DNA of 64,000 nucleotides, from the NCBI GenBank assembly GCA_944362965.1, contig CALVTR010000001.1, positions 90,529 through 154,528 on the forward strand, written 5' to 3'. Below the pieces are notes generated by a model. That model made no database searches. It was not told the DNA's origin and worked only from the letters and a program-made list of their open reading frames with translations. Positions 2,444 through 46,581 of this stretch are shown piece after piece. Every line of letters begins with the position of its first letter. The stretch's first letter is position 1. A program made the position numbers and the translations under genes. Origin of the DNA: an uncultured Clostridia bacterium (GTDB lineage Bacteria; Bacillota; Clostridia; Christensenellales; UBA1242).

Positions 2444-3577
2444 TTATTTCATTTTTTTGAGGTAATTTGTATATTTTGTGTAAGAGTTGTCTCCAATATC
2501 TTTTGCAAGCTCTTGAAGTTTTGCCTTTGTTTGTTTGTCAAGGCTCTTAGGAGTTTCAGCCTTAACTGTTACATAAAGGTCACCATAGGCTTCTCTATTG
2601 AGCTCTTTCACACCTTTATTTTTTAGTTTAAAAACTGTTCCGCTGGCAGTAAGCTCTGGAATATTTAGAGAATACAAACCTTCTAGCGTTGGAATATCTA
2701 CCTTTCCACCAAGAAGGGTTGTTGTGAAAGGCAAATATAAATCAATATAAAGGTCACTTCCTTTTCTCACAAGTATCTTATGAGGGCTTACTGATACTTT
2801 GATATTAAGGTCACCATTCACTCCATCTCGCGTTGGAGCATTGCCTTCCCCACGCATTCTTAAGGTTTGACCATTGTCAATTCCTGCAGGGAACTTTACT
2901 TTTATTGTCTTGTTTGTTCTTATAGTTCCCTTACCATTACATACCGAACATTTTTCTTTGATGATTTTTCCTGTCCCATTACATTTAGGGCAGCCTGCTT
3001 CTCGTATTGTAGTGCTAAAGAGTGTGTTTTGTTGATATCTTACTCTGCCCGTGCCGTTACATTCAGGACATACTGAAAACTCTCTGCCGTCTTTAGCGCC
3101 TGTGCCTTTGCAAGACGAACATTTGTCAAGTTTTCCTATGGTGATATTTTTCTCACAGCCAAAGCATGCTTCTTCAAAGGTAAGATTGATTGAAGTGTTG
3201 ATATCTTGACCACGCTCTCTTGTTCTGCTTTCAGCTCTACCGCTTCCGCCAAATGCAGAAAAGATGTCGGAGAAGATATCAGAAAAACCACCGCCGCCAC
3301 CGAAGAAGTCACCAAAACCACCACCGCTGCTTGCTCCGCCTCCAGCTCCAAAAGGATTGCCGTCAGCCGAGCCGAATTGGTCATAGTTCGCTCTCTTCTT
3401 TGCGTCGCCGAGCACGCTATAAGCTTCATTTATCTCTTTAAATTTTTCTGCTGCTTCTGGTGTTTTGTTAAGGTCTGGGTGATATTTCTTTGCAAGTCTG
3501 CGATATGCCGACTTGATTTCATCTTCACTAGCACTTTTATCAACACCAAGCACTGAATAATAATCTTTATTTGCCAT
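2444..3577 (-). CDS. dnaJ: molecular chaperone DnaJ
   Basis: J-domain with HPD (KKYHPDLN), a G/F-rich linker and four CxxCxGxG zinc-finger repeats. Confidence 0.97.
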
Positions 3578-3644: not shown

Positions 3645-4001
3645 TTATCGCTGCTGCTGTTGTTCGTCTCTTATTATTTCGCTTTCAAAAAAGCGTTCTT
3701 GAAACTCAGTTAAAGCACGGATCTGCTCGTCTGAATAGTCTTTATCTTGGCTCATCACAACCAGTTTGTCATCATTATCGTTTGTTCTATGAATGACAGC
3801 TTTAACAACACCTTCAAAAGCTTCAAGCGGTTTAAATTCACCAAGAACATAGGCATCAAGCTCTTCGCCATCACCTGAGATAGTCCCTGGAATGTAGCCA
3901 TAGTTGACAGGATAGATAAACCCATGCTTAGGATGTTTGCTCCCAAGCGGTCTATCCATTTTGACTATAACCTTTTTATTTAGATAATCTCTTGCATCCA
4001 T
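3645..4001 (-). CDS. short inorganic-pyrophosphatase-like protein
   Basis: 118 aa. The PVNYGYIPGT...GDGEELDAYVLG segment resembles the family I PPase acidic core, but the protein is much shorter than canonical PPase. Confidence 0.5.
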   Translation of the reverse strand: MDARDYLNKKVIVKMDRPLGSKHPKHGFIYPVNYGYIPGTISGDGEELDAYVLGEFKPLEAFEGVVKAVIHRTNDNDDKLVVMSQDKDYSDEQIRALTEFQERFFESEIIRDEQQQQR

Positions 4002-4004
4002 AAC

Positions 4005-4535
4005 TTACTCCATATCTTTTATTAGGCAATCCTTGCCGAAGTTTCTTATTGCAATATTTTTAAACTGCTTTAAAGGCATAGGGTTATTATTTGCTGAGCC
4101 AAGGCAGTTTTCAATAAATATTGGTTGCAAGCCCATGTCAAATAGCTGAAATCCTATTGCAAGAAGGCAGGCATCATAGTCTGTTCCACAAAGGTATACC
4201 TTCTCGCTACCCGCTTGCTTTAATCGCTGAGTAAAATCTAATGGCAAAGCGTAGGAATGTTTTTCTATTATCTCTAAATTTTCGGGCTCGTCAAACGCTA
4301 GGTCAATATCAGGGCTTTCTGTCATTTTGTGCCAATCTAAAAATCTTTGATATTGACCGCCATTCAAGTTGACAAATTTTGTTGCAAAAATTCTATCAAA
4401 ATGAGAGCGCTCAAGGAGTTTATTTATATTTTCAAGCATATTTTTATTGCTATTTGTAATAAACCCCTTCTGCACATCAACAATTATTAGAATTTTCTTT
4501 CCCCCGTCCATGTTATTTGTTGTCATCGTCAACAA
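4005..4535 (-). CDS. isochorismatase/cysteine-hydrolase family protein
   Basis: [13 protein letters not shown]-terminal motif and a later [10 protein letters not shown]. The start is uncertain: an ATG at 4511 lies 1 nt after the dnaK stop, while the longest ORF starts at 4535. Confidence 0.7.
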
Positions 4536-6354
4536 CTACTTCTGGGTCGCCGTCGTTGTTTCCGTTGTTGCCATTGCCGTTGCTGCCATCAGTTGTTCCG
4601 TTTGTTCCGTTTGGATTAGCTGATTGATACATCTTAGAAACAATGCCGTTTGAAACATTTGTAAGCTCGTCAATAGCTTTCTTTACAGTGTCAATGTCAT
4701 CGCTAGCCATATCGGTCTTAGCTTTTTCAATGGCATCTTGAAGCTTTTTCTTGTCATCTTCTTGAAGCTTATCACCATTTTCTTTTATCATCTTTTCAAG
4801 ACCATAGACGAGGTTGTCTGCTTGGTTCTTTGTTTCAACAAGTTCCTTACGCTTCTTATCTTCTTCAGCGTGAGCTTCAGCTTCTTTGATAGCGTTTTGA
4901 ATATCTTCTTCCTTAAGGTTTGAAGATGCTGTGATTGTGATATTTTGTTCCTTATTTGTTCCAAGATCCTTTGCAGAAACTTTAACTATACCGTTTGCAT
5001 CAATATCAAAGGTAACTTCGATTTGTGGAACGCCTCTTGGTGCTGGTGGAATATCTGTAAGTTGGAATCTTCCAAGAGTTTTGTTTTGATTTGCAAATTC
5101 TCTTTCACCTTGAAGAACGTGGATATCTACGGCTGGTTGGTTATCAACTGCAGTTGAGAATACTTGAGATTTTCTTGTAGGTATTGTTGTGTTTCTTTCA
5201 ATAAGTTTTGTAAACACGCCGCCAAGAGTTTCAATGCCAAGTGAAAGTGGAGTTACATCAAGAAGAAGAACATCTTTAACTTCTCCGCCAAGAACACCTG
5301 CTTGAATTGCAGCACCAATAGCAACGCATTCATCAGGGTTGATGCCCTTGTATGGATCTTTGCCGATAAATTCTTTAACAGCTTCTTGAACAGCAGGAAT
5401 ACGTGTTGAACCACCAACTAAGATAACTTTATCAATTTGATTCTTGTCAAGTTTAGCGTCAGCAAGAGCTCTTACTGTGCAGTCGATTGTTTCTTTAACA
5501 AGGTCTTCAGTAAGTTGGTCAAACTTAGCACGAGTAAGTTCATATTCCATATGTTTAGGACCTGTTGCGTCAGCAGAAATGAATGGAAGTGATATTGTTG
5601 TCTTTGGAGTTGCTGAAAGGTCTATCTTAGCCTTTTCTGCAGCTTCCTTGAGTCTTTGCATAGCAAGTTTATCAGTTGAAAGGTCTATATTGTTTGTCTT
5701 TTTGAACTCTTCAACAAGAAGGTCAATAATTCTATTATCAAAGTCATCGCCACCAAGACGAGTGTTGCCATTTGTTGAAAGAACTTCAAACACACCGTCA
5801 CCTATTTCAAGAATAGATACATCGAATGTTCCACCGCCCAGGTCGTAAACTAAAATCTTTTGATTTGCGTTTTCACCTTTGTCAAGACCATAAGCAAGAG
5901 CGGCTGCAGTAGGCTCGTTGATGATACGAAGAACATCAAGTCCTGCAATCTTACCAGCGTCTTTTGTTGCTTGACGTTGTGAGTCGTTAAAGTATGCAGG
6001 CACTGTGATAACAGCCTGAGTAACAGGTCCACCAAGATAGCTTTCTGCATCAGCCTTCAATTTTGAAAGTATCATAGCAGAGATTTCTTGTGGTGTGTAT
6101 TCTTTGCCGTTAAGAGTAACCTTATAGTTTGTTCCCATTTCACGTTTAATTGATTGAACTGTGTTTTCAGCATTTACTATCGCTTGACGCTTAGCAACTT
6201 TGCCGACAAGTCTTTCTCCTTCCTTTGTGTAAGCTACAACTGAAGGCGTTGTTCTATCTCCTTCAGCATTTGCTATAACGGTTGGTTTTCCACCTTCCAT
6301 AACAGCTACACATGAGTTTGTTGTTCCTAAGTCTATTCCAATAATTTTTCCCAT
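4513..6354 (-). CDS. dnaK: molecular chaperone DnaK (Hsp70)
   Basis: [17 protein letters not shown] and [11 protein letters not shown] motifs, full length at 613 aa. Confidence 0.98.
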
Positions 6355-6357
6355 AAT

Positions 6358-7140
6358 CTAATCCTCCTTTTTATTGACAGAGACTATAGCATATCGTATA
6401 ACTTTATCATTAAATTTATATCCAGCTTGGTATTCTTCCAAGATGATATCATTTTCTTTGCTGTCGTCTTTTCGAACAGCTATTGCATTGTGCAAATGTG
6501 GATTGTATTTTTCACCAACGGTGCTAATTTTTTCAACGCCTAAGCTTTTCAAAGCTCCGTTGATACTTTCTTCAATCATTTCAACACCTTTAAGCACATT
6601 TTCGTCGGTGATTGATTTCTTTGCTTCCTTAAAAGTGTCAAGGCATGGCAAGAACACTTCTATCACTGATGCCTGCCCGCTGATTTTGGCTTGTTTGATA
6701 TCTTCAACAGCATGACGTCTGAAGTTTTCAAAGTCAGCTTGAATTTGCTTTGCAAGATTTAAGTATTCAAGGCTTTTGTCATGTTCATGCTCACAGCAAG
6801 AACACTCGCTGTCACCTTCTTTTTCGCAAGTGCCTTCTTCGCAGGTGCAATTTTCGCACTCACAATTCTCTCCGCAAGTGCATTCCTGCCCGTCCTTACA
6901 ACCACAATTTTTCTCGTGGTCGCACTCGCATTCTTCGCCGCACGCGCATTCGTCATCATGAGCGCAGCACTTTTCTTTATCGCATTCGCAGCCATCCGAG
7001 CATTTATTTTCGCTGTCACACTTGCAATTCTCACCACAAGTGCAGTTTTCATTGCAATCGCAGTTTTTTTCTTGCTCGCAGCCGCATCCATTTTCGTCAC
7101 AGTGACTTGACGCGTTTTCTTCATCAAAATATTGTGACAT
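6358..7140 (-). CDS. grpE: nucleotide exchange factor GrpE with a Cys-rich N-terminal extension
   Basis: The C-terminal ~140 aa is GrpE-like (FENFRRH...GEKYNPHLHNAI). The start ATG directly abuts the hrcA stop (TAG-ATG), with AAAGGAG upstream. The N-terminal ~120 aa contains 30 Cys. Confidence 0.9.
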   Translation of the reverse strand: MSQYFDEENASSHCDENGCGCEQEKNCDCNENCTCGENCKCDSENKCSDGCECDKEKCCAHDDECACGEECECDHEKNCGCKDGQECTCGENCECENCTCEEGTCEKEGDSECSCCEHEHDKSLEYLNLAKQIQADFENFRRHAVEDIKQAKISGQASVIEVFLPCLDTFKEAKKSITDENVLKGVEMIEESINGALKSLGVEKISTVGEKYNPHLHNAIAVRKDDSKENDIILEEYQAGYKFNDKVIRYAIVSVNKKED

Positions 7141-8142
7141 CTATTCTCCTTTTAAGTTGTTTAGGTTATCTATAACAACTTTTAATGCAGAGGCTATTCC
7201 CGCATAATCCATTCGCTGCGGCCCAATCACACCAATAGAGGCAAGTTGATGTCCTTTCAAAACAATAGGTGCTTTGACGACTGAGCAACTTGCATCATTT
7301 TCGTCTGCAACCGTCACTTCGATGTCGCCCTTGCCTTCAAGTTCCATCATGTTTGAAAGTTCTTTTTCATTTTCAAGCACATCAAGAACTTTTTTAGCAG
7401 CTTCAACATCATTCTTGTTTTCAAGAAGTTTTGCACTGCCTTGACGGCGGACATTGAGCAGTTTTTGCTTGTTCAATTTCTTAAGACCATCTATAAGCGA
7501 ACTTACCACATTTTCAAAGGCTTCAATTTCGCTGTGCATACCTTCTTCAAGCTGCTCAATGTTGTCTATCATAAACCCGATTGTCTCACCTTTGAAGTGT
7601 TTTGTAAGATAGTTTGAAGCGTCATTGCAGTCTTCCACGCTCGCCTTAACGTCCAGCGTTTGATTGATGTAACCGGCTATTGTTCCAATCAGCACCATGA
7701 TTTTATCTTCAAGAAGGGGTATGATTTTAAAATCAGTTAGCACTAAATTTTCAACGCCGTCCACCATAACAACCGTTGGGTAGTTTGTGGCTTCAGAAAC
7801 AATCTTTGCAATTCCTGAAACAATCTCGTTTAAACTGCTTGTGCGTGAAGAGATAAGGTTTTGCACTTCGTCAAGCTGTCTGTCACTTGCTGTAGAATTT
7901 TCAAGCAAATGCTCCACATAGTAGCGATAGCCCTGCGCAGTAGGCACACGCCCACCAGATGTGTGCAGCTGTCTTAAAAATCCCATAGCTTCAAGTGCGT
8001 TAAGCTCACTTCGAAGTGTTGCAGTTGAACAGCCTATTGAAGAAGCTTCCTTGATTCCACCACTTGTGATGGGACTGCAATCTTTGATGTATTCTTCAAC
8101 AGCCATGCATAAGATTTTTTGTTTGCGGTCAGATAATTCCAT
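7141..8142 (-). CDS. hrcA: heat-inducible transcription repressor HrcA
   Basis: N-terminal winged-helix (LSDRKQKIL...PITSGGI...STATLRSELNALE). Sits first in the operon, downstream of CIRCE. Confidence 0.93.
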   Translation of the reverse strand: MELSDRKQKILCMAVEEYIKDCSPITSGGIKEASSIGCSTATLRSELNALEAMGFLRQLHTSGGRVPTAQGYRYYVEHLLENSTASDRQLDEVQNLISSRTSSLNEIVSGIAKIVSEATNYPTVVMVDGVENLVLTDFKIIPLLEDKIMVLIGTIAGYINQTLDVKASVEDCNDASNYLTKHFKGETIGFMIDNIEQLEEGMHSEIEAFENVVSSLIDGLKKLNKQKLLNVRRQGSAKLLENKNDVEAAKKVLDVLENEKELSNMMELEGKGDIEVTVADENDASCSVVKAPIVLKGHQLASIGVIGPQRMDYAGIASALKVVIDNLNNLKGE

Positions 8143-8378: not shown

Positions 8379-8407
8379 ATTATATGCAGTTTTTTCAAAA
8401 TAGTCAA
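8379..8407 (-). promoter_or_regulatory. sigmaA-type promoter of the hrcA operon
   Basis: Minus strand reads TTGACT (8402-8407), a 17-nt spacer, then TATAAT (8379-8384). Confidence 0.65.
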
Positions 8408-8475: not shown

Positions 8476-10395
8476 TTATACAATCGCAGTCCAATCTCGT
8501 TTATAATAAGTAGAACTTCCTAAATACTCTAAAGCATTCACAGGAATTGACGAAGCTTGAACAGTTGTTGAAGCGTAACCATTGCCTGACACCCTCCAAT
8601 TACATGTTGTATTTAGTGTTATCGTTTCAAGCCCTGTTACACTTTGGAAAGCATAGTAGCCTATAAATGTAACGCTTTCTGGGATTACTAGAGAAGTTAC
8701 AGCAAATCCACAATAATAAAAGGCAAGTCTACCTATACCTGTCACATTTGAAGATAGTTCTATCGTGATATTATCAAGCCCTGCGAAAGCACCAATTTCA
8801 ATATACGTGATTATACTATAAAGATAGCTTCCTTCGGTTATTGTTGTATTATCTGTTGCACGTATTAAAGCCATATCTTCAAGTCTAATTAAGCAGTTCA
8901 GTTCATTACCATCACTATCTCGACTTGTAAAGTATTGATTTTCAGGGTCTACATATATAGTTTTGATATTTTGGCACCCTGAAAATGCATATTCACTAGT
9001 AATATCATTAACATTTTTCCCTATATGGATGTTGCTAATAGATATGTTATTATAGTATTTATCATGACTATCTTCTTCAAGATATGATCTAAATAAATTT
9101 GGTATAGTTTCAACACTATCACCAAAAATGAAATTTGTTATAGTAGAGCCACTAAAAGTAGCAATGGTTGTTCCATCATACAAATAATTAAGACTCGCAT
9201 TTTTTGCATTATAATAAATTGTGTTTACACTTAAATCACTAAAAGCCTTGTGACCTATCCTTTCTACATTTGCACCTATAGTCAATTCTTCAAGATTGTC
9301 GCAAGCACAGAAAGCATATCCATCTATATCTGTCACGCTATCTGGAATTGTTATATTTGTTAAACTACTGCAATAATAGAAAGCATAATTACCTATACTT
9401 GTCACACTGTCTGGAATTACTATACTTGTTAAACTATCGCAACCAGAGAAAGCACGATCTCCTATACTTGTCACACTAAAAGTATAAGGTGATACTTCTG
9501 AGTTATAGGTTTCTGTTGGTATTTTTAATCCAATCACACTTGTATCACAGCCTGTAACACTTGCTGTGCCATCTGTGCCATCTTCGTTATAAGAATATGT
9601 TAAATAATTATCTGGCTCTTCAAATATTGCATAATAGGTTGCGGCAGAAGTATCGTCATATGTAAATTCATAATCAAAACTTGTTGATACAAGCTCTCCT
9701 GTTTCACTACCTGCTCTCCAACCTAAGAAAGCTGCTCCGTCAACGTCTGTAAAGTTGGCTGAAAGTGCAACTTGCTGCCCTATTTCTACTACTCCACCAC
9801 CTGTTGCTGTGCCTAGTGTTTCATTAGTCGATATCGCTGTCACTGATAGTGCTTCTTTTATTGTGATAACTATTTCTCCTAAATCTATGCTGTCAGAGTT
9901 TGGTGCCATGATTGTCAGCTCAAGTGTGCCGTCTGCTTGCGTAGTTGCAGGGTCAAATTCTTTAAAATCGTCACCATCTGAATCGGTTAAGTCATTCACA
10001 CCAATAATTCCGCTATGCCTTTCTGACACGCCGTCATTTGTAAGGGAGCTCAAGTCTACGTCCGCTATTTGCCAATAACTATCCGTTGCATTGATTATAT
10101 CAAAATACAAGGTAAAAGAGCCGTGACCATTCTCTTCTGTGTTTAAAGACGTTAAATCCATATTAAAGTTTCCGTTTATGTAACCCGGTGTAAAACTATC
10201 AACAACTATCTCTTCTCCGCCCGCTTCTTGATACCTGACTTCTTTAACATACAAGCTCTTGTCTGGAACTACAAAACTTAAACTTCCTTGCATGCTTATC
10301 TGTTGCTGCGTCGCTGCATATACCCCAAGTATCAATACACCAAGCATAAGCATAAATAACGAAATACATGATATTAGTTTTAATTTTAATGACAT
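8476..10395 (-). CDS. secreted/surface BspA-type leucine-rich-repeat protein (locus 1)
   Basis: The likely start is the MSLKLKL Met at 10395, preceded by AAGGAGAG; the 26 codons upstream run through the leader and are rejected. N-terminal K-rich and hydrophobic signal. The C-terminal half has ~23-aa repeats (SLTSIVIPDSVTSIGNYAFYYC). Confidence 0.85.
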   Translation of the reverse strand: MSLKLKLISCISLFMLMLGVLILGVYAATQQQISMQGSLSFVVPDKSLYVKEVRYQEAGGEEIVVDSFTPGYINGNFNMDLTSLNTEENGHGSFTLYFDIINATDSYWQIADVDLSSLTNDGVSERHSGIIGVNDLTDSDGDDFKEFDPATTQADGTLELTIMAPNSDSIDLGEIVITIKEALSVTAISTNETLGTATGGGVVEIGQQVALSANFTDVDGAAFLGWRAGSETGELVSTSFDYEFTYDDTSAATYYAIFEEPDNYLTYSYNEDGTDGTASVTGCDTSVIGLKIPTETYNSEVSPYTFSVTSIGDRAFSGCDSLTSIVIPDSVTSIGNYAFYYCSSLTNITIPDSVTDIDGYAFCACDNLEELTIGANVERIGHKAFSDLSVNTIYYNAKNASLNYLYDGTTIATFSGSTITNFIFGDSVETIPNLFRSYLEEDSHDKYYNNISISNIHIGKNVNDITSEYAFSGCQNIKTIYVDPENQYFTSRDSDGNELNCLIRLEDMALIRATDNTTITEGSYLYSIITYIEIGAFAGLDNITIELSSNVTGIGRLAFYYCGFAVTSLVIPESVTFIGYYAFQSVTGLETITLNTTCNWRVSGNGYASTTVQASSIPVNALEYLGSSTYYKRDWTAIV

Positions 10396-10435
10396 AACAC
10401 ACTCTCCTTTTTTTGCGAGCAAGCTTCGCCTAAGC

Positions 10436-10539
10436 GAGAAGGCATAAAGGCTGATAAGCCTTTCAGAAGGCAAAAGCTTTTGCCTTGTTGTGCATTTTGG
10501 AAAAATGCACGTGCCTTCTCACACTCGCGGCGAAGCCGC
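10436..10539 (-). promoter_or_regulatory. structured 5' leader of locus 1 (four-way junction plus GC hairpin)
   Basis: Outer stem GAGAAGGCA/TGCCTTCTC (10436-10444 / 10512-10520) encloses three hairpins at 10446-10463, 10467-10486 and 10490-10510. A GCGGC-GAA-GCCGC hairpin follows at 10527-10539. Confidence 0.55.
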
Positions 10540-10933: not shown

Positions 10934-11704
10934 TTACACTAAAAACTCTTTGATGATTTTTAGGGCGTTCTTTTCAAGGCGGGAAACTTGGGCTTGGCTT
11001 ATGCCTATCTCTTCACTGACTTCGGTTTGCGTCTTGCCAATGTAATAGCGCATAAGCAAAATTTCCTTCTCTTTTTCTGGCAACACTTTGATTGCGTCCT
11101 TGATTGATATGTTTTCATAAAGATGCTCATCAGTGTTCTTCGTGTCAGCTATCTGGTCAAGCAGTTCTATAGTTTCAGTTCCGTCACTGTATATAGGGTC
11201 GCTGAGAGACACTGTATCGCTTATAGCGTCAAGTGCAAAGGTGACAGTCTTGAGCGGAACGTCAATCTCTTTTGCAATTTCTTCTAGCGTAGGCTCTTCA
11301 ACCGATTTTTTCATCAATCTTTCCTTAGCCTGCAATGCCTTATAAGCAATATCACGCATAGAACGAGAGACACGCACTGAATTGTTGTCACGAAGATAGC
11401 GTTTAATCTCACCTATAATCATAGGCACGGCATAGGTTGAAAACTTGACGTTCAAGTTTTCATCAAAATTATCGATAGCCTTCATAAGCCCAACGCAGCC
11501 AACTTGAAACATATCGTCAGCCTTTTCGCCTTTGCTGCCAAACCTATGAACAACAGACAGCACCAGTCTTAAATTTGCAACTATAAAGTAGTCGCGAGCT
11601 TTTTCATCACCCGCCTTAATCTTTTTTATAAACTCAAGCATATCTTCGTTTGTAAGTTTTGGCAATTTGTTTGTGTCAACCCCTGAAATACTGACTTTAG
11701 ACAT
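10934..11704 (-). CDS. sigG: sporulation sigma factor SigG
   Basis: ISGVDTNKLP, NLRLVLSVVHRF, KFSTYAVPMIIGEIKRYLRDN and VRVSRSMRDIAYKALQ closely match SigG. It follows sigE as in Bacilli and Clostridia. The start is taken at MSKVSISG after AAAGGGAG. Confidence 0.9.
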   Translation of the reverse strand: MSKVSISGVDTNKLPKLTNEDMLEFIKKIKAGDEKARDYFIVANLRLVLSVVHRFGSKGEKADDMFQVGCVGLMKAIDNFDENLNVKFSTYAVPMIIGEIKRYLRDNNSVRVSRSMRDIAYKALQAKERLMKKSVEEPTLEEIAKEIDVPLKTVTFALDAISDTVSLSDPIYSDGTETIELLDQIADTKNTDEHLYENISIKDAIKVLPEKEKEILLMRYYIGKTQTEVSEEIGISQAQVSRLEKNALKIIKEFLV

Positions 11705-12034
11705 ACCCCTGCTCCCTTTAAGGTATATCTTTTGCAAACAAAATAAAAAGTATACAAGGTCGACAAAAAATTATAAAAAAATTAAATAAATTAAATTAAA
11801 AATCAATATTTAAATAAATATTTAAATATAAAATTATAAAAATTTAAAAATAATTAAATAATTAAATAAAAACAATATAGAAACTTATAAAAAAATTAAA
11901 AAAATCAATAAAATAAAATTAAAAATTGAAATAATTATAAAAATTTATAAAAATTAAATAAAAAAACAATAATTATTTATTTTTTAAATATTATTGCTTT
12001 TTTAAATTATTTTTAATTATTATTTTTATTTATT

Positions 12035-12760
12035 TTAAGATAATCTTTCTATTTCTTCTTTCATATCATTTAAAATTCTTTTTTCTAGGCGAGAAATATA
12101 GCTTTGACTTATTCCAAGTTTTAAGGCAACTTCTCTTTGCGTCAGTTCTTGATGCCCCATAAGTCCATAGCGGAGAATCATTATCTCGCGTTCACGATGA
12201 TTGAGTTTGCCAATAAGCTCGTTTATTATCTGCTTATCGGCAGGCTCGTCCACCGCCTGCGTTATAACATCATCTTCACCCGGCAAGATATCTGCAAGCA
12301 CAAGTTGATTGCCATCACTATCTTCACAAAGCGGTTTGTCAAGGCTTATATCATTCTTTATCTTAGACGTTTTTCTGATTTGCATAAGAATTTCATTCTC
12401 TATACAACGCGACGCATAGGTTGCAAGCCTGATATTCTTATCAACCTTAAAAGTTCTAACTGCTTTGATAAGCCCTATTGCACCTATTGAAATCAAATCT
12501 TCAAACTCGATGCCCGTATTTTCAAACTTCTTTGCAATATAGGCAACAAGTCTTAGGTTGTGTTCTATAAGCTTTTCGGTGGCAGTCATATCACCGCTTT
12601 CTTTTAGGATGAGAAGTCTGTTTTCTTCGTCCGGTTCAAGTGGTGGCAAAAACTCATCATTTCCACAGACATAGCACACAATATTCTTTACATTTAAAAG
12701 ATTGTGCTTATGAAACAAATTATAGACAAAAAGTTTTATTTTAAAGATAAGATTTTTCAT
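12035..12760 (-). CDS. sigE: sporulation sigma factor SigE (pro-sigmaE)
   Basis: A pro-sequence followed by YVCGNDEFLPPL, HNLRLVAYIAKKFENTGIEFEDLISIGAIGLIKAV and ATYASRCIENEILM. Confidence 0.92.
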   Translation of the reverse strand: MKNLIFKIKLFVYNLFHKHNLLNVKNIVCYVCGNDEFLPPLEPDEENRLLILKESGDMTATEKLIEHNLRLVAYIAKKFENTGIEFEDLISIGAIGLIKAVRTFKVDKNIRLATYASRCIENEILMQIRKTSKIKNDISLDKPLCEDSDGNQLVLADILPGEDDVITQAVDEPADKQIINELIGKLNHREREIMILRYGLMGHQELTQREVALKLGISQSYISRLEKRILNDMKEEIERLS

Positions 12761-12768
12761 ATAACCCC

Positions 12769-13569
12769 CTATATAAGTGCTTGATTTAAAAGCACACGTT
12801 TCCCAAAACTCTTGTCAAAGCCTGAAAAGGACAGCCCAAGAGCCACATCCTTATAGCATTTGTCTTTGCCAACATGCACTTCATCCACTCTGAACACCAA
12901 AATGCTGCTGCTTGAGCCGACGCCTTTTATTTGAACAAAGTGCCCGTCTTTTATTGCGTTTTTATCATAATTTTTTGTGACAGCATTTATATAATTTATA
13001 TTAGAGTAGAGCTTGTGAAATACATCAAAAGTCACAAGAATAATAGGTTTTTTTGTAAGAGTATCGTAAAGCACGTTGCCGCTGTCAAGATAGCCTTCTT
13101 CATAAAAAGTTTTGCCATTATCAACAAGTGTGACTTGATATGTAAACTTTTCTATCATACTTTTTCTCTGCTGAACCTTGACAATAATTTTTGTTATTAT
13201 ATAAATAACCATCACAACGATTGCCACAACAAAAAGCGGAAAACTTCCTATGAGATTTGAAAGCGCATAGCACGCCCCACCAAAAAGAAAGGTTGAGGCA
13301 AATAGCGAGCAAAAATAAATCAAAAATTTTTTGAAAGATTTAACCTGAAAAGATATACAAACCATAAGAGAACACATTGCAAGCGTAATCACGATTTTTA
13401 ACGCCCAACTTAAATTATAAAGTGGCAAGATAATGGCAACGATGCTCCCTATCAATGCAGATATCATCCAAAGTCTTGGCGGCTCTTTCAATAAAAGCCC
13501 AGTCAATTTTAATATTAATGAATTTACAAAAAAGTTTATTACAAAAGAATATTCTATAATAATTTCCAT
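12769..13569 (-). CDS. spoIIGA: sigma-E processing aspartic peptidase SpoIIGA
   Basis: Polytopic N-terminus and the C-terminal GYLDSGNVLYDTLTKKPI motif (DSGN). Positioned upstream of sigE. The start is taken at MEIIIEY (13569); the ORF extends to 13680. Confidence 0.85.
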   Translation of the reverse strand: MEIIIEYSFVINFFVNSLILKLTGLLLKEPPRLWMISALIGSIVAIILPLYNLSWALKIVITLAMCSLMVCISFQVKSFKKFLIYFCSLFASTFLFGGACYALSNLIGSFPLFVVAIVVMVIYIITKIIVKVQQRKSMIEKFTYQVTLVDNGKTFYEEGYLDSGNVLYDTLTKKPIILVTFDVFHKLYSNINYINAVTKNYDKNAIKDGHFVQIKGVGSSSSILVFRVDEVHVGKDKCYKDVALGLSFSGFDKSFGKRVLLNQALI

Positions 13570-13707
13570 TTTTGCCTCGCTTGAAAAAATTATAAAATAA
13601 ACTTTTAAAAATAAATAAATAAAATATTTTATAAATTTGTTGAAATTTTGATTTTTTAAATAAAAAAAGACGACTTGCAATTTGTCGCCTTTTTATGTAT
13701 TATTTAA

Positions 13708-14910
13708 TTATTTTTTATTTCTTCTTAATTTTTCAATCCATGGTGGAACGTTTGTTGATTTTACGTCAACTCTTGAAGAAGAAAGGTCATCATGACGCTC
13801 AAGCGAAACATTTGGTTTTGCTTCTTCCATTTCTCTTTCCTTTTGAACATAGTTTGAGAACATGCTGCGAGTGTCATATTTAGCTTTAGCCTGCCCCATA
13901 TTGCCTATAGAACGAGCACTTTCCATCTCCTTCTTTCTCTCATCTTCCTTAGCTTTTTCGTCATTTGCATTTTTAAAGCCTGTGGCAATAAGAGTGATTT
14001 CAACTTCATCATGCATATTATCGTCAATGCAAGTTCCAACAATGATATTGCACCCTTCGTCAGCAACTTCTCGAACAAGTGCAGCAGACTCACTGACATC
14101 GTCTTGAGTTAAATCGCCACCACCTTTGATATTGATAAGCACACCTGTTGCTCCTTCAATCGTTGTTTCAAGAAGTGGGCTGGCAACTGCCTGTTTAACG
14201 GCATCAAGAGCTTTGCTGTCGCCTGTGCCATAACCTATACCCATGTGTGCAAGACCTTTGTCTTTCATAACTGTTGTTACATCGGCAAAGTCAAGGTTGA
14301 TAAGACCTGGATATGCAATAAGGTCTGAAATTCCCTGAACACCTTGTCTTAGCACGTCGTCAGCAAATCTAAAGGAATCTTTGATAGGCGTCTTCTTAGG
14401 CATTATTTCAATCAATTTTTGATTTGGTATAACAACAAGAGCATCGACATATTTTCTTAATTTCTCAAGCCCTTCTTCAGCATTGTTCGCCCTAACCTTT
14501 CCTTCAAAATCAAATGGCTTTGTTACTACTGCAATGGTTAAAATACCAAGCTCTTTTGCAATTTGTGCAATAACAGGAGCAGCACCTGTTCCTGTTCCGC
14601 CACCCATACCTGCTGTGATAAATAAAAGGTTTGTGCCCTTCAACATTTCAGTGATAGAGGTCTTGCTTTCTTCTGCAGCCTTTTGTCCTATTTCTGGCTT
14701 TGCCCCCGCACCTTGTCCATCTGTAAGGCGTTCCCCTATTTGAAGTCTTGTTTCAGCCTTGCTGATAAGAAGTGCCTGTTGGTCTGTGTTGACAGCGATA
14801 AACTCAGCAGAGCTTACCCCAGCTTCAATCATGCGGTTCACAGCGTTGTTTCCACCGCCACCTACACCAATAACTTTAATCTTTGTGACAGAAGTTGCTA
14901 AATTATCCAT
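13708..14910 (-). CDS. ftsZ: cell division GTPase FtsZ
   Basis: [13 protein letters not shown] and the tubulin signature [11 protein letters not shown]. Confidence 0.98.
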
Positions 14911-15189
14911 AATTTTCTCCTTAAACTCCCCTTTTTCTAGAGATTTGTTTATATTTAAAAAGCCTTACTTTGGCTTTTAAATATCACTTATGCATATTGT
15001 AATACATTTTGAATAAATTTGCAATCAAATCTATAAAAATTTTTAAAATTTTGCTAAAAACCACTTTTTCAAGTTAAATCATGCATAATTATTCATTTCT
15101 ATTATAACAAACTTTTTGCAAATATCAAGAGTTTTTTCAAAGATTTTTTATAAACTTTTTTTAAATGTCTTATCTTGCAGACTATAAAA

Positions 15190-16314
15190 TTATTGATTAA
15201 GCTCTAGTGCACTGTTTGTAAGTGACAAAATAGACGCAAGCTCGGGCTTATCTTTGCCCGGAAGTGGTGGAAGTCCATAACTTACATTGCGGCCGAGACA
15301 CTTGCCAAGATAATCTCGTCCGCCTTTTATCTTGCTAATTCCTGCACCTGTCAGATATACAGGAAGATAGGATAGAAATTCTTTTGTATTCATTTGAACA
15401 CACTTTGATATAACCTGAGCTATCTCTTCAATGCGATAGCCAACAACTTCGTTTGCACTGTTGAGCGGAATCTTGATAACCTTGCCAACGTCTGCGGTGA
15501 GCTCATAGAAGTCACTTTGCTTGCCCTTAACTGACAGCACTATCAGTCTTTTTAGTTTGTCCGCCTCATTTATTGAAATATCAAAGGCATCTGCAAGGTC
15601 ATTGGTTATAAAACCGCCACCACGTGAAAAACTTGTGAGTGCGTAAAGTCCGTCGCCTTTGACAAAGGATATACTTGAAGTCAAATCACCAACGTCTATC
15701 AAAAGCGCAAGGTCTTCCCGTCTTTCTTTAGGTATAATAAAAAGTGCTTGGGCAAGCGGCTCTGAAATATATTCAACACTTGAATAGTCAAGACCTGCAA
15801 CTATTGTGTTGAACATTTCTATAAACTTTTTATCCGCATATATTATAGACAGGTTTGCAGTGATAGAAAGTGCATTTTCCCCAATGGGCTCTAGCGTAAC
15901 CCTGCCATCATCTATTATATAGGATATAGGATTTACTGAAACAACTTCAACTGAGCTATCCTTTGCCTTCTCACTTGCCATATAGAAAAGAGAATCTATG
16001 TCCGCTTGTTTAATCTTTCGTCTTGTGCCAAAATTGATAGAAACTTCGCTGCGTTTAACTGATGAAAATTCTGCAGGCACGCCTATATAAATCTTATCGA
16101 GTTCGCGTGACCTTGAAACGTCTAGCTCTGATGTGAGCTGCTCGAAAAGCGGAGAGATTTTTTCTGGTCTTATAAACTCCCCTTGATAGAATCCGTCATA
16201 CTCATATTCCTTAAAGCCTTTTATATTAAATGTGTTGTTAAGCCCCCTTCCTGCATAAATTGCACGAAGTTTTAACGAGCCAATATCAATTACCAAACAA
16301 AAATCATCTTTCAT
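15190..16314 (-). CDS. ftsA: cell division protein FtsA (actin-like ATPase)
   Basis: N-terminal VIDIGSLKLR phosphate-1 motif and LIDVGDLTSS. Position upstream of ftsZ. Confidence 0.8.
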   Translation of the reverse strand: MKDDFCLVIDIGSLKLRAIYAGRGLNNTFNIKGFKEYEYDGFYQGEFIRPEKISPLFEQLTSELDVSRSRELDKIYIGVPAEFSSVKRSEVSINFGTRRKIKQADIDSLFYMASEKAKDSSVEVVSVNPISYIIDDGRVTLEPIGENALSITANLSIIYADKKFIEMFNTIVAGLDYSSVEYISEPLAQALFIIPKERREDLALLIDVGDLTSSISFVKGDGLYALTSFSRGGGFITNDLADAFDISINEADKLKRLIVLSVKGKQSDFYELTADVGKVIKIPLNSANEVVGYRIEEIAQVISKCVQMNTKEFLSYLPVYLTGAGISKIKGGRDYLGKCLGRNVSYGLPPLPGKDKPELASILSLTNSALELNQ

Positions 16315-46505: not shown

Positions 46506-46581
46506 GGAAGTTTAGCTCAGCTGGGAGAGCATCTGCCTTACAAGCAGAGGGTCATAGGTTCGAGCCCTATAACTTCCACCA
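46506..46581 (+). tRNA. tRNA-Val (anticodon UAC) with encoded CCA
   Basis: Acceptor stem GGAAGTT/AACTTCC, D-loop AGCTCAGCTGGGAGAGC, anticodon loop CTTACAA, T-arm GGTTCGAGCCC and a 3' ACCA. Confidence 0.95.

Follow-up and report, generated by a model that had tools for sequence, protein, structure and literature searches.

The 64,000-nucleotide stretch of DNA analysed here (the window; GC content 35%), from a contig of an uncultured Clostridia bacterium, encodes a GrpE, the nucleotide exchange factor of the chaperone DnaK, whose N-terminal tail is a translated domain carrying 30 cysteines (Cys). The Cys residues of this tail are under purifying selection, the trait is lineage-wide and recurs in a distant GrpE clade, and the underlying repeat is shared with the C-terminal tail of a SlyD homologue. 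The tail probably binds metals, and we hold with moderate confidence that it is a metallothionein-like thiolate array which would provide the cell with a stress-inducible sink, buffer or store for thiophilic metals.

The N-terminal tail of GrpE is a translated cysteine array

The Cys-rich module spans residues 14–116, with 30 Cys among 103 residues, and its C-terminal end reads CSCCEHEHD. An earlier note on this DNA, made from its letters alone, had described the domain in these terms, down to the 12 CxC pairs, and all of its counts and coordinates proved exact. Cys makes up 25% of the tail as a whole (residues 1–121) and Asp plus Glu 31%; the tail carries a net charge of -30 and contains only three hydrophobic or aromatic residues, all within positions 1–5. 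Residues 14–121 have no Phe, Trp or Tyr, and the module thus combines the high Cys content, CxC and CC motifs and lack of aromatic residues that are typical of metallothioneins. His is present at five positions, which is the family median. Relative to the Cys background of 1.7% in the long open reading frames (ORFs) of the window, the binomial probability of the module is about 3e-28, which excludes chance as the source of the enrichment, and no other ORF of comparable Cys richness is present in the 64-kb window. Tandem Repeats Finder reported no more than a weak 15-bp repeat (2.5 copies), and a recent DNA-level tandem duplication or slippage as the origin of the array is thereby ruled out. 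Two plus-strand ORFs that overlap the region (6750–7175, 141 amino acids, and 6781–7110, 109 amino acids) are antisense frame shadows of low-complexity coding sequence and not genes.

The start codon, which the earlier note had considered well supported, stands up to closer inspection. The grpE ATG (7140–7138) abuts the hrcA stop codon TAG (7143–7141), and a ribosome-binding site, AAGGAG, lies inside the last hrcA codons; the sequence upstream of the ATG is AAAGGAGAATAG, and the context AAAGGAGAATAG/A is seen again in relatives. After codon 1, no in-frame ATG, GTG or TTG occurs in grpE until codon 159, which already falls within the GrpE fold; this rules out an internal start codon. Since there is no alternative start before codon 159 and the ATG has a good ribosome-binding site, the Cys tail must be translated. 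An assembly artefact is likewise excluded, because the identical protein is found on 22 contigs of independent assemblies, each time in the order hrcA-grpE-dnaK.

The remainder of the protein is a canonical GrpE body, in agreement with the gene identity originally assigned, and nucleotide exchange on DnaK is predicted from its family membership. Pfam PF01025 (GrpE) matches residues 122–257 with 114.3 bits against a cutoff of 25.8 (E = 5.9e-33; profile positions 26–165), and the best NCBIfam GrpE model reaches E = 3.6e-31, yet the NCBIfam matches lie under their equivalog cutoffs. AlphaFold2, run with a 29-sequence alignment, models helices at residues 122–176 and 180–200 followed by a six-strand beta-wing, which is the GrpE fold, with predicted local distance difference test (pLDDT) values of 77–93 for residues 122–260 and below 50 for most of residues 1–118. 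The nearest solved structure is Geobacillus GrpE (4ANI; E = 4.5e-22), on which query residues 125–256 align with chain residues 77–212, and in E. coli GrpE (1DKG) query residue 132 is aligned with chain residue 64. Because Pfam profile positions 1–25 are without a match and the start of the helix at residue 122 corresponds to about E. coli residue 54, the GrpE stalk seems to lack part of its N-terminal end. Family-wide, the last Cys precedes the stalk by a median of 5 residues, and in the GrpE dimer the two Cys arrays would be neighbours at the stalk tip.

The cysteine tail is a lineage-wide trait

A protein search with the window GrpE returned 708 homologues, and among the best 120 almost all have a Cys-rich tail. 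Statistics were compiled for 116 sequences, that is, the window protein and 115 homologues, and 8 or more tail Cys are present in 111 of them (median 17, range 0–31). Tail length in this family varies from 31 to 133 amino acids on a highly conserved GrpE body with invariant columns, and the window tail represents the upper extreme of the family range. Of the Cys-Cys spacings, 47% are CxC and 23% are Cx3C, while CxxC accounts for 62 of about 1900, or about 3%. The composition of the family Cys core is 28.7% C, 17.7% E, 11.8% D, 8.6% K, 7.4% G, 7.0% N and 6.8% H, with less than 2% hydrophobic residues. GTDB species representatives include 18 close species, 15 of which have tails with 12–33 Cys. 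These 18 species, defined by a GrpE body at least 59% identical, are all represented by metagenome-assembled genomes of uncultured gut Clostridia or Firmicutes, with record names indicating human gut (UMGS), mouse (MGBC) and possibly rabbit ('Lapin'); the taxonomy of this clade and of the second clade described below follows submitters' record titles.

An outgroup of 61 GrpEs from Bacilli, Paenibacillus, Actinobacteria and other Clostridia has 0–4 tail Cys, mostly 0. The statement in the earlier note that canonical GrpE N-termini are Cys-free is borne out by this comparison, and the homologues with Cys-rich N-termini for which it proposed a search do exist. The window protein is not the singular oddity it had seemed, and is instead one example of a whole-lineage trait found in at least two deep GrpE clades. 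The tails of some relatives are rich in His as well (24 His in L014, 15 in L017 and 17 in L019). Cys-poor GrpEs, namely L006–L008, P0110, P0112, P0098 and P0105, cluster inside the Cys-rich clade, and this nesting suggests secondary loss of Cys.

Some of these relatives deserve separate mention. The species represented by L006 and L007, whose GrpE has lost most of its Cys, encode a homologous Cys/Asn-rich protein of 164–173 amino acids (L006 11519–12040 and L007 10837–11331, both on the minus strand) that begins with MLFNNFNNCNCGCNNKVWQNPCFNPC and ends with CLLAGCILGNCCRNRCC; its gene lies about 5 kb downstream and adjoins an RsmE-like methyltransferase gene. The GrpE of L019 (2061–3203; 380 amino acids) is a distant sister with a body 39% identical to that of the window GrpE. 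Its tail of 245 amino acids holds 39 Cys in addition to its 17 His, is built from a different and longer repeat (ACNSDCDCGCVD...) with a His-rich run at the end, and the locus has a perfect-consensus CIRCE element upstream.

The repeat recurs in a second GrpE clade and on unrelated proteins

A degenerate DNA probe for the pattern CxCG[DE]xCxCx3CxCx3CxC, which by construction pulls only repeat-bearing genes, matched at least 120 loci on metagenome contigs. The matches listed comprise 117 usable ORFs, and 12 of these are GrpE. In 11 of the 12, the body is only 27–35% identical to that of the window GrpE and the DNA has 25–30% GC. A rough, midpoint-rooted neighbour-joining distance tree places these 11 beside Cys-free Bacilli and not with the window clade. 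An unbiased protein search started from L178, a member of this second clade, found 7–21 tail Cys in all of the best 120 matches, and one clade member sits within an hrcA-grpE-dnaK-dnaJ operon; the record name of its contig denotes a human-gut (Hadza/Nepal) sample. The existence of this distant clade means that GrpE Cys tails either arose at least twice or are ancient and have been lost many times.

The same probe identified the repeat on proteins other than GrpE. L198 is a trigger factor with a C-terminal CHCGQDCHCGDDCECDDDCDCGDDCDC tail, and L194 is a SlyD homologue (NCBIfam PRK10737 over residues 1–199) with a C-terminal tail, CHCGDDCHCGDDCNCGDDCQC, made of a CxCGDD repeat. In the latter the repeat occupies the position of the characterised metal-binding extension of E. 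coli SlyD. The CxCG[D/E]x repeat also forms a C-terminal tail on a Thioredoxin_3 protein (L095) and an N-terminal tail on a SIMPL/DUF541 protein (L103), and a further probe match is a mannose-6-phosphate isomerase with an internal Cys/His insertion (L192). That one repeat occurs on both a SlyD homologue and a trigger factor speaks for a metal-binding tail that is portable, comparable to those of H. pylori HspA and E. coli SlyD. When the Cys module was searched by itself, phmmer against 1.84 billion representatives returned 0 matches, a word-seeded search yielded 13 candidates of which none scored, and the PDB gave one insignificant match, to the alcohol dehydrogenase zinc lobe (E = 0.62). The search for CxC-repeat domains that the earlier note had suggested was successful by DNA probe and empty by HMMER, probably as a result of the HMMER composition correction, and no domain-level homology is claimed for the module.

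Many of the probe matches are stand-alone ORFs of about 50 amino acids with 12 Cys, for example MTNETQKQCRCEKASCGCAKAASAPCTCGERCACKSNCECGAGCACNARK. They occur at L155 from position 2588 onward, with similar ORFs on L129, L133, L137, L165, L168, L173, L175, L183 and L197, and no Pfam or NCBIfam family matched them. Judged by sequence, these ORFs may constitute an unannotated family of small bacterial metallothionein-like proteins.

Selection preserves the cysteines while the linkers turn over

Selection was assessed mainly by comparing the window GrpE with the homologue P0005, to which it is 73% identical over the full length. The tail gives pN 0.185 and pS 0.72, for a dN/dS of about 0.09, and the body a dN/dS of about 0.07; the Nei-Gojobori pS of the tail is an overestimate, since two-fold degenerate codons make up nearly all of the sequence, and silent differences at conserved two-fold codons were counted in addition. 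Cys is kept at 27 of 30 positions and other residues at 50 of 92 (54%; Fisher p = 4e-4), and nine conserved Cys codons show a silent TGC/TGT swap. In a comparison with L089 (window 6778–7140 and L089 2371–2769), nucleotide identity of the tail is 78%, versus 92% for hrcA, 92% for dnaK and 94% for the GrpE body. Silent differences affect 39% of the conserved two-fold codons in the tail and 12% in the body, and the two tails differ by a 15-amino-acid indel. The Cys-rich segment is thus a hotspot of divergence at the DNA level, for which repeat reshuffling, recombination or misaligned repeat units are possible causes. On the evidence of these alignments, selection keeps the Cys pattern and composition and not the exact sequence, while tail length and linkers change fast, which is the behaviour expected of a metal-binding array where capacity matters.

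The cysteine-tailed GrpE belongs to a heat-shock operon headed by a CIRCE-like element

The gene lies in an operon of the order hrcA, grpE, dnaK, isochorismatase-family gene, pyrophosphatase-family gene and dnaJ (Table 1), preceded by a sigma-70-type promoter and an inverted repeat resembling the HrcA operator, the controlling inverted repeat of chaperone expression (CIRCE). A scan for the CIRCE pattern gave this one match, with 3 mismatches, where 0.02 would be expected by chance. One CIRCE-like element is found 5′ of hrcA in each of 23 relative loci out of the 23 examined, and the arrangement of promoter followed by CIRCE is kept upstream of hrcA in all relatives checked. Given this element and the established HrcA/CIRCE system, the Cys-rich GrpE is most likely heat-shock inducible via HrcA.

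Table 1. Features of the grpE locus in the window (positions numbered from the first nucleotide of the window; aa, amino acids)
Feature	Position	Strand	Remarks
grpE	6358..7140	-	ORF of 260 aa
Acidic leader, grpE codons 1–13 (MSQYFDEENASSH)	7102..7140	-	kept in P0001–P0005
Cys-rich module, GrpE residues 14–116	6793..7101	-	30 Cys, 12 CxC, 2 CC
EHEHD junction, residues 117–121	6778..6792	-	His-x-His motif between last Cys and stalk helix
GrpE body, residues 122–260 and stop codon	6358..6777	-	stalk helix, helical bundle, beta-wing
grpE ribosome-binding site AAGGAG	7146..7151	-	inside last hrcA codons
hrcA, heat-shock repressor	7141..8142	-	333 aa; Pfam HrcA, 5.3e-32; stop abuts grpE ATG
CIRCE-like inverted repeat (HrcA operator), CTAGCGCTT-N9-GAGTGCTAA	8348..8374	.	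directly after -10 hexamer
-10 hexamer TATAAT	8379..8384	-	read from sequence
-35 hexamer TTGACT, hrcA-grpE-dnaK operon promoter	8402..8407	-	read from sequence; 17 nt upstream of TATAAT
dnaK	4513..6354	-	613 aa; Pfam HSP70, 5e-254; start 3 nt after grpE stop
Isochorismatase-family gene	4005–4535	-	overlaps dnaK end
Pyrophosphatase-family gene	3645–4004	-	between dnaK and dnaJ
dnaJ	2444..3577	-	377 aa, with CXXCXGXG zinc-finger domain; precomputed Pfam families of the identical gene on L081
Sporulation/cell-division cluster (sporulation-type sigma factor, sigE, spoIIGA, ftsZ, ftsA)	10934–16314		adjoins heat-shock operon

The presence of isochorismatase- and pyrophosphatase-family genes between dnaK and dnaJ is unusual for operons of this type and is kept in L081, L087 and L089. 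Just upstream of the operon, a gene on the minus strand (8476–10473) encodes an LRR_5 (BspA-like) protein of 665 amino acids that is strain-variable, being broken into two ORFs on L082 and replaced on L087 by two much larger LRR proteins of 1466 and 916 amino acids. The sporulation genes neighbouring the heat-shock operon indicate an endospore-forming clostridial host. An Rfam scan of the window found nothing near the operon and a single tRNA, at 46506–46578.

Discussion

The mechanism we propose starts from the disordered acidic N-terminus of GrpE, which would have become a metal-binding domain rich in thiolates and resembling metallothionein, with about 12 CxC units, short acidic or glycine linkers between them, and a position immediately N-terminal to the stalk helix of the dimer. 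This domain would be co-produced with HrcA, DnaK and DnaJ from one CIRCE-controlled heat-shock operon, and because of this control thiolate capacity is proposed to rise whenever proteins unfold. A GrpE dimer would present 60 Cys. Mammalian metallothionein binds 7 Zn with 20 Cys, and by this analogy one tail might accommodate roughly 10 Zn(II) or Cd(II), or more Cu(I). Candidate metals, which include Zn, Cu, Ni and Cd, would then be held near the Hsp70 machine following the same logic as the metal-binding extensions of HspA and SlyD. A sink or store is favoured over a precise allosteric sensor because the number of Cys and the length of the tail vary widely among close relatives, because the same repeat is attached to unrelated proteins at either terminus, and because Cys has been lost in some nested lineages.

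Several observations weigh against this proposal. GrpE is usually a low-abundance protein, which would limit the capacity of such a sink, and the tail is evidently dispensable for GrpE function since a few nested relatives (L006–L008, P0110, P0112 and P0119) have lost most or all of its Cys. No metal-handling genes were found adjoining the operon. The earlier designation of the domain as metallothionein-like holds for its Cys composition and for the CxC motifs of metal-thiolate proteins and fails at the level of curated families: the score for Pfam PF00131 (Metallothio) is 16.2 bits, short of the cutoff of 23, and neither NCBIfam nor the PDB supplied a match to the Cys module. At a net charge of -30 the tail is also far more acidic than classical metallothioneins. 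Finally, the sequence assigns no particular metal to the array.

An alternative that we regard as possible, although doubtful, is the idea of the earlier note that the tail couples chaperone cycling to metal or redox status, as a regulatory switch in which metal loading or thiol oxidation alters the stability of the stalk or dimer and thereby tunes nucleotide exchange on DnaK. In a strict anaerobe, for example, O2 might oxidise the thiolates and inactivate GrpE, leaving DnaK as an ADP-bound holdase. The fixed position of the array against the stalk keeps this model alive: because a median of 5 residues separates the last Cys from the stalk helix, cluster formation could act on the stalk directly, and the stalk itself looks shortened. 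The stalk is moreover the thermosensor of E. coli GrpE, and the related factors Mge1 and GRPEL2 (through Cys87) are known redox sensors (PMC12987570, PMC3596242, PMC6089081). A precise allosteric device would, however, be expected to be more constant than a tail with 0–31 Cys and 31–133 amino acids on a highly conserved body, and attachment of the same repeat to unrelated proteins at either terminus also speaks against a switch.

The remaining explanations appear considerably less probable than a switch. That the tail is a neutral, low-complexity spacer, in which an ancestral acidic disordered tail drifted to high Cys content and was tolerated in a reducing anaerobe, would account for the lack of a confident AlphaFold2 fold (pLDDT below 50), for the fast turnover by indels and substitutions relative to the flanking genes, and for the relatives from which Cys is absent. 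We nevertheless judge drift improbable in light of the preferential retention of Cys over linker residues, the silent changes at retained Cys codons, the regular CxC-x3 pattern in more than 100 homologues, and the reappearance of the tail in a second deep GrpE clade. Slightly less credible still is an iron-sulfur cluster, or a role in carrying sulfur as persulfide or polysulfide, in place of Zn, Cu or Ni thiolate clusters. The very high Cys density fits such chemistry, as does the sulfide- and iron-rich setting of hosts that are apparently anaerobic gut Firmicutes, to judge from gut sample and record names and from sporulation genes. Classical ferredoxin-type motifs (CxxCxxCxxxC) are absent, however; the window tail contains one CxxC (Cys95 to Cys98) and no CxxCxxC, the rarity of CxxC spacings across the family makes iron-sulfur binding unlikely, and no iron-sulfur or sulfur-transfer genes were found within the operon. 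Least credible of all, to the point of being nearly negligible, is the view that the Cys stretch is absent from the mature protein through a wrong start codon or N-terminal processing. Beyond the general caution that start codons in metagenomes are predictions, nothing in the sequence speaks for it, whereas the strong ribosome-binding site at the annotated ATG and the lack of any other in-frame start before the GrpE fold speak against it, as do the hundreds of homologues in which the frame stays open and subject to purifying selection.

The rebuilding of the GrpE tail as a Cys module, with 30 Cys in the case of the window protein, has taken place in two or more deep lineages of gut Firmicutes that are abundant but uncultured. 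Should the tail bind metal, the principle of combining a chaperone with a metal reservoir would extend from HspA and SlyD to the Hsp70 system, and proteostasis would be tied to metal or redox homeostasis in gut anaerobes. A bolder reading, which we consider unlikely and somewhat more so than the switch in its simple form, is that the Cys array constitutes a new regulatory input to the Hsp70 cycle. In this view, nucleotide exchange would be gated reversibly through the truncated stalk, according to the metal occupancy or thiol oxidation of the array. Gut Firmicutes that are strict anaerobes would then have in their DnaK system a direct sensor of metal or oxygen stress, and the modules on trigger factor and SlyD homologues would be signs of a broader class of chaperones bearing metal or redox tags. 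The natural Cys-tailed GrpE offers a ready construct for asking whether the tail affects DnaK cycling, and the trigger factor and SlyD-homologue tails, together with the 50-amino-acid proteins with 12 Cys, are possible bacterial metal-binding sequences that merit study.

Comparison with known systems

The role of the GrpE N-terminal tail is an open question according to a 2025 review of GrpE-like factors, which discusses the disordered N-terminus at length and mentions neither 'metal' nor 'zinc' (PMC12987570). Our literature search found no paper joining GrpE with a Cys-rich or metallothionein-like domain, and curated profile libraries cover the GrpE body only. Metallothioneins themselves resemble the GrpE module in its composition of about 29% Cys, its CxC and CC motifs, its lack of aromatic residues and the absence of a predicted fold without metal; they differ in being small stand-alone proteins, whereas the module is a fused domain of a 260-amino-acid protein.

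Exchange factors of the GrpE family with stress sensing through the stalk or dimer provide a second point of reference. GRPEL2 senses by a Cys disulfide and Mge1 by Met oxidation (PMC12987570, PMC3596242, PMC6089081). In these redox- and temperature-sensing factors the response is attributed to one residue within the conserved fold, unlike the appended 100-residue Cys array described here. Cys-rich proteins are also familiar from chaperone systems in the form of zinc centres: Hsp33 uses a CxC...CxxC zinc site as a redox switch, and DnaJ, whose zinc-finger domain is encoded in this same operon, has four CxxCxGxG motifs. Those are defined four-Cys sites in folded domains, whereas the GrpE array is repetitive, variable in length and without a Pfam match to either.

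The closest parallels are chaperones and folding helpers with metal-binding terminal extensions. In H. pylori HspA, a GroES, a His/Cys-rich extension sequesters nickel and serves hydrogenase maturation (PMC4671568). Like the GrpE described here, HspA is a co-chaperone from a heat-shock operon that joins a canonical fold to a lineage-specific, low-complexity terminal extension containing Cys. The HspA extension is C-terminal and has about 27 amino acids with 8 His and 4 Cys, whereas that of GrpE is N-terminal, and has about 108 amino acids with 30 Cys, 5 His and CxC repeats. The E. coli SlyD tail contains 13 His and 6 Cys and can take up as many as 7 Ni; among homologues, tail length ranges from 2 to 50 residues (PMC7840056). 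SlyD, an FKBP-type prolyl isomerase and chaperone, is likewise a helper of folding whose tail is rich in His, Cys and carboxylates and varies greatly in length, on another host protein and at the opposite terminus; the GrpE tail is longer, has fewer His and lacks a link to hydrogenase or HypB. As in HspA and SlyD, the GrpE tail is a lineage-specific terminal extension, of 31–133 amino acids and 0–31 Cys, that is absent from the 61 outgroup GrpEs. A chaperone or co-chaperone with a Cys/His metal-binding extension is therefore already known from HspA and SlyD, and its GrpE version is new in the literature searched.

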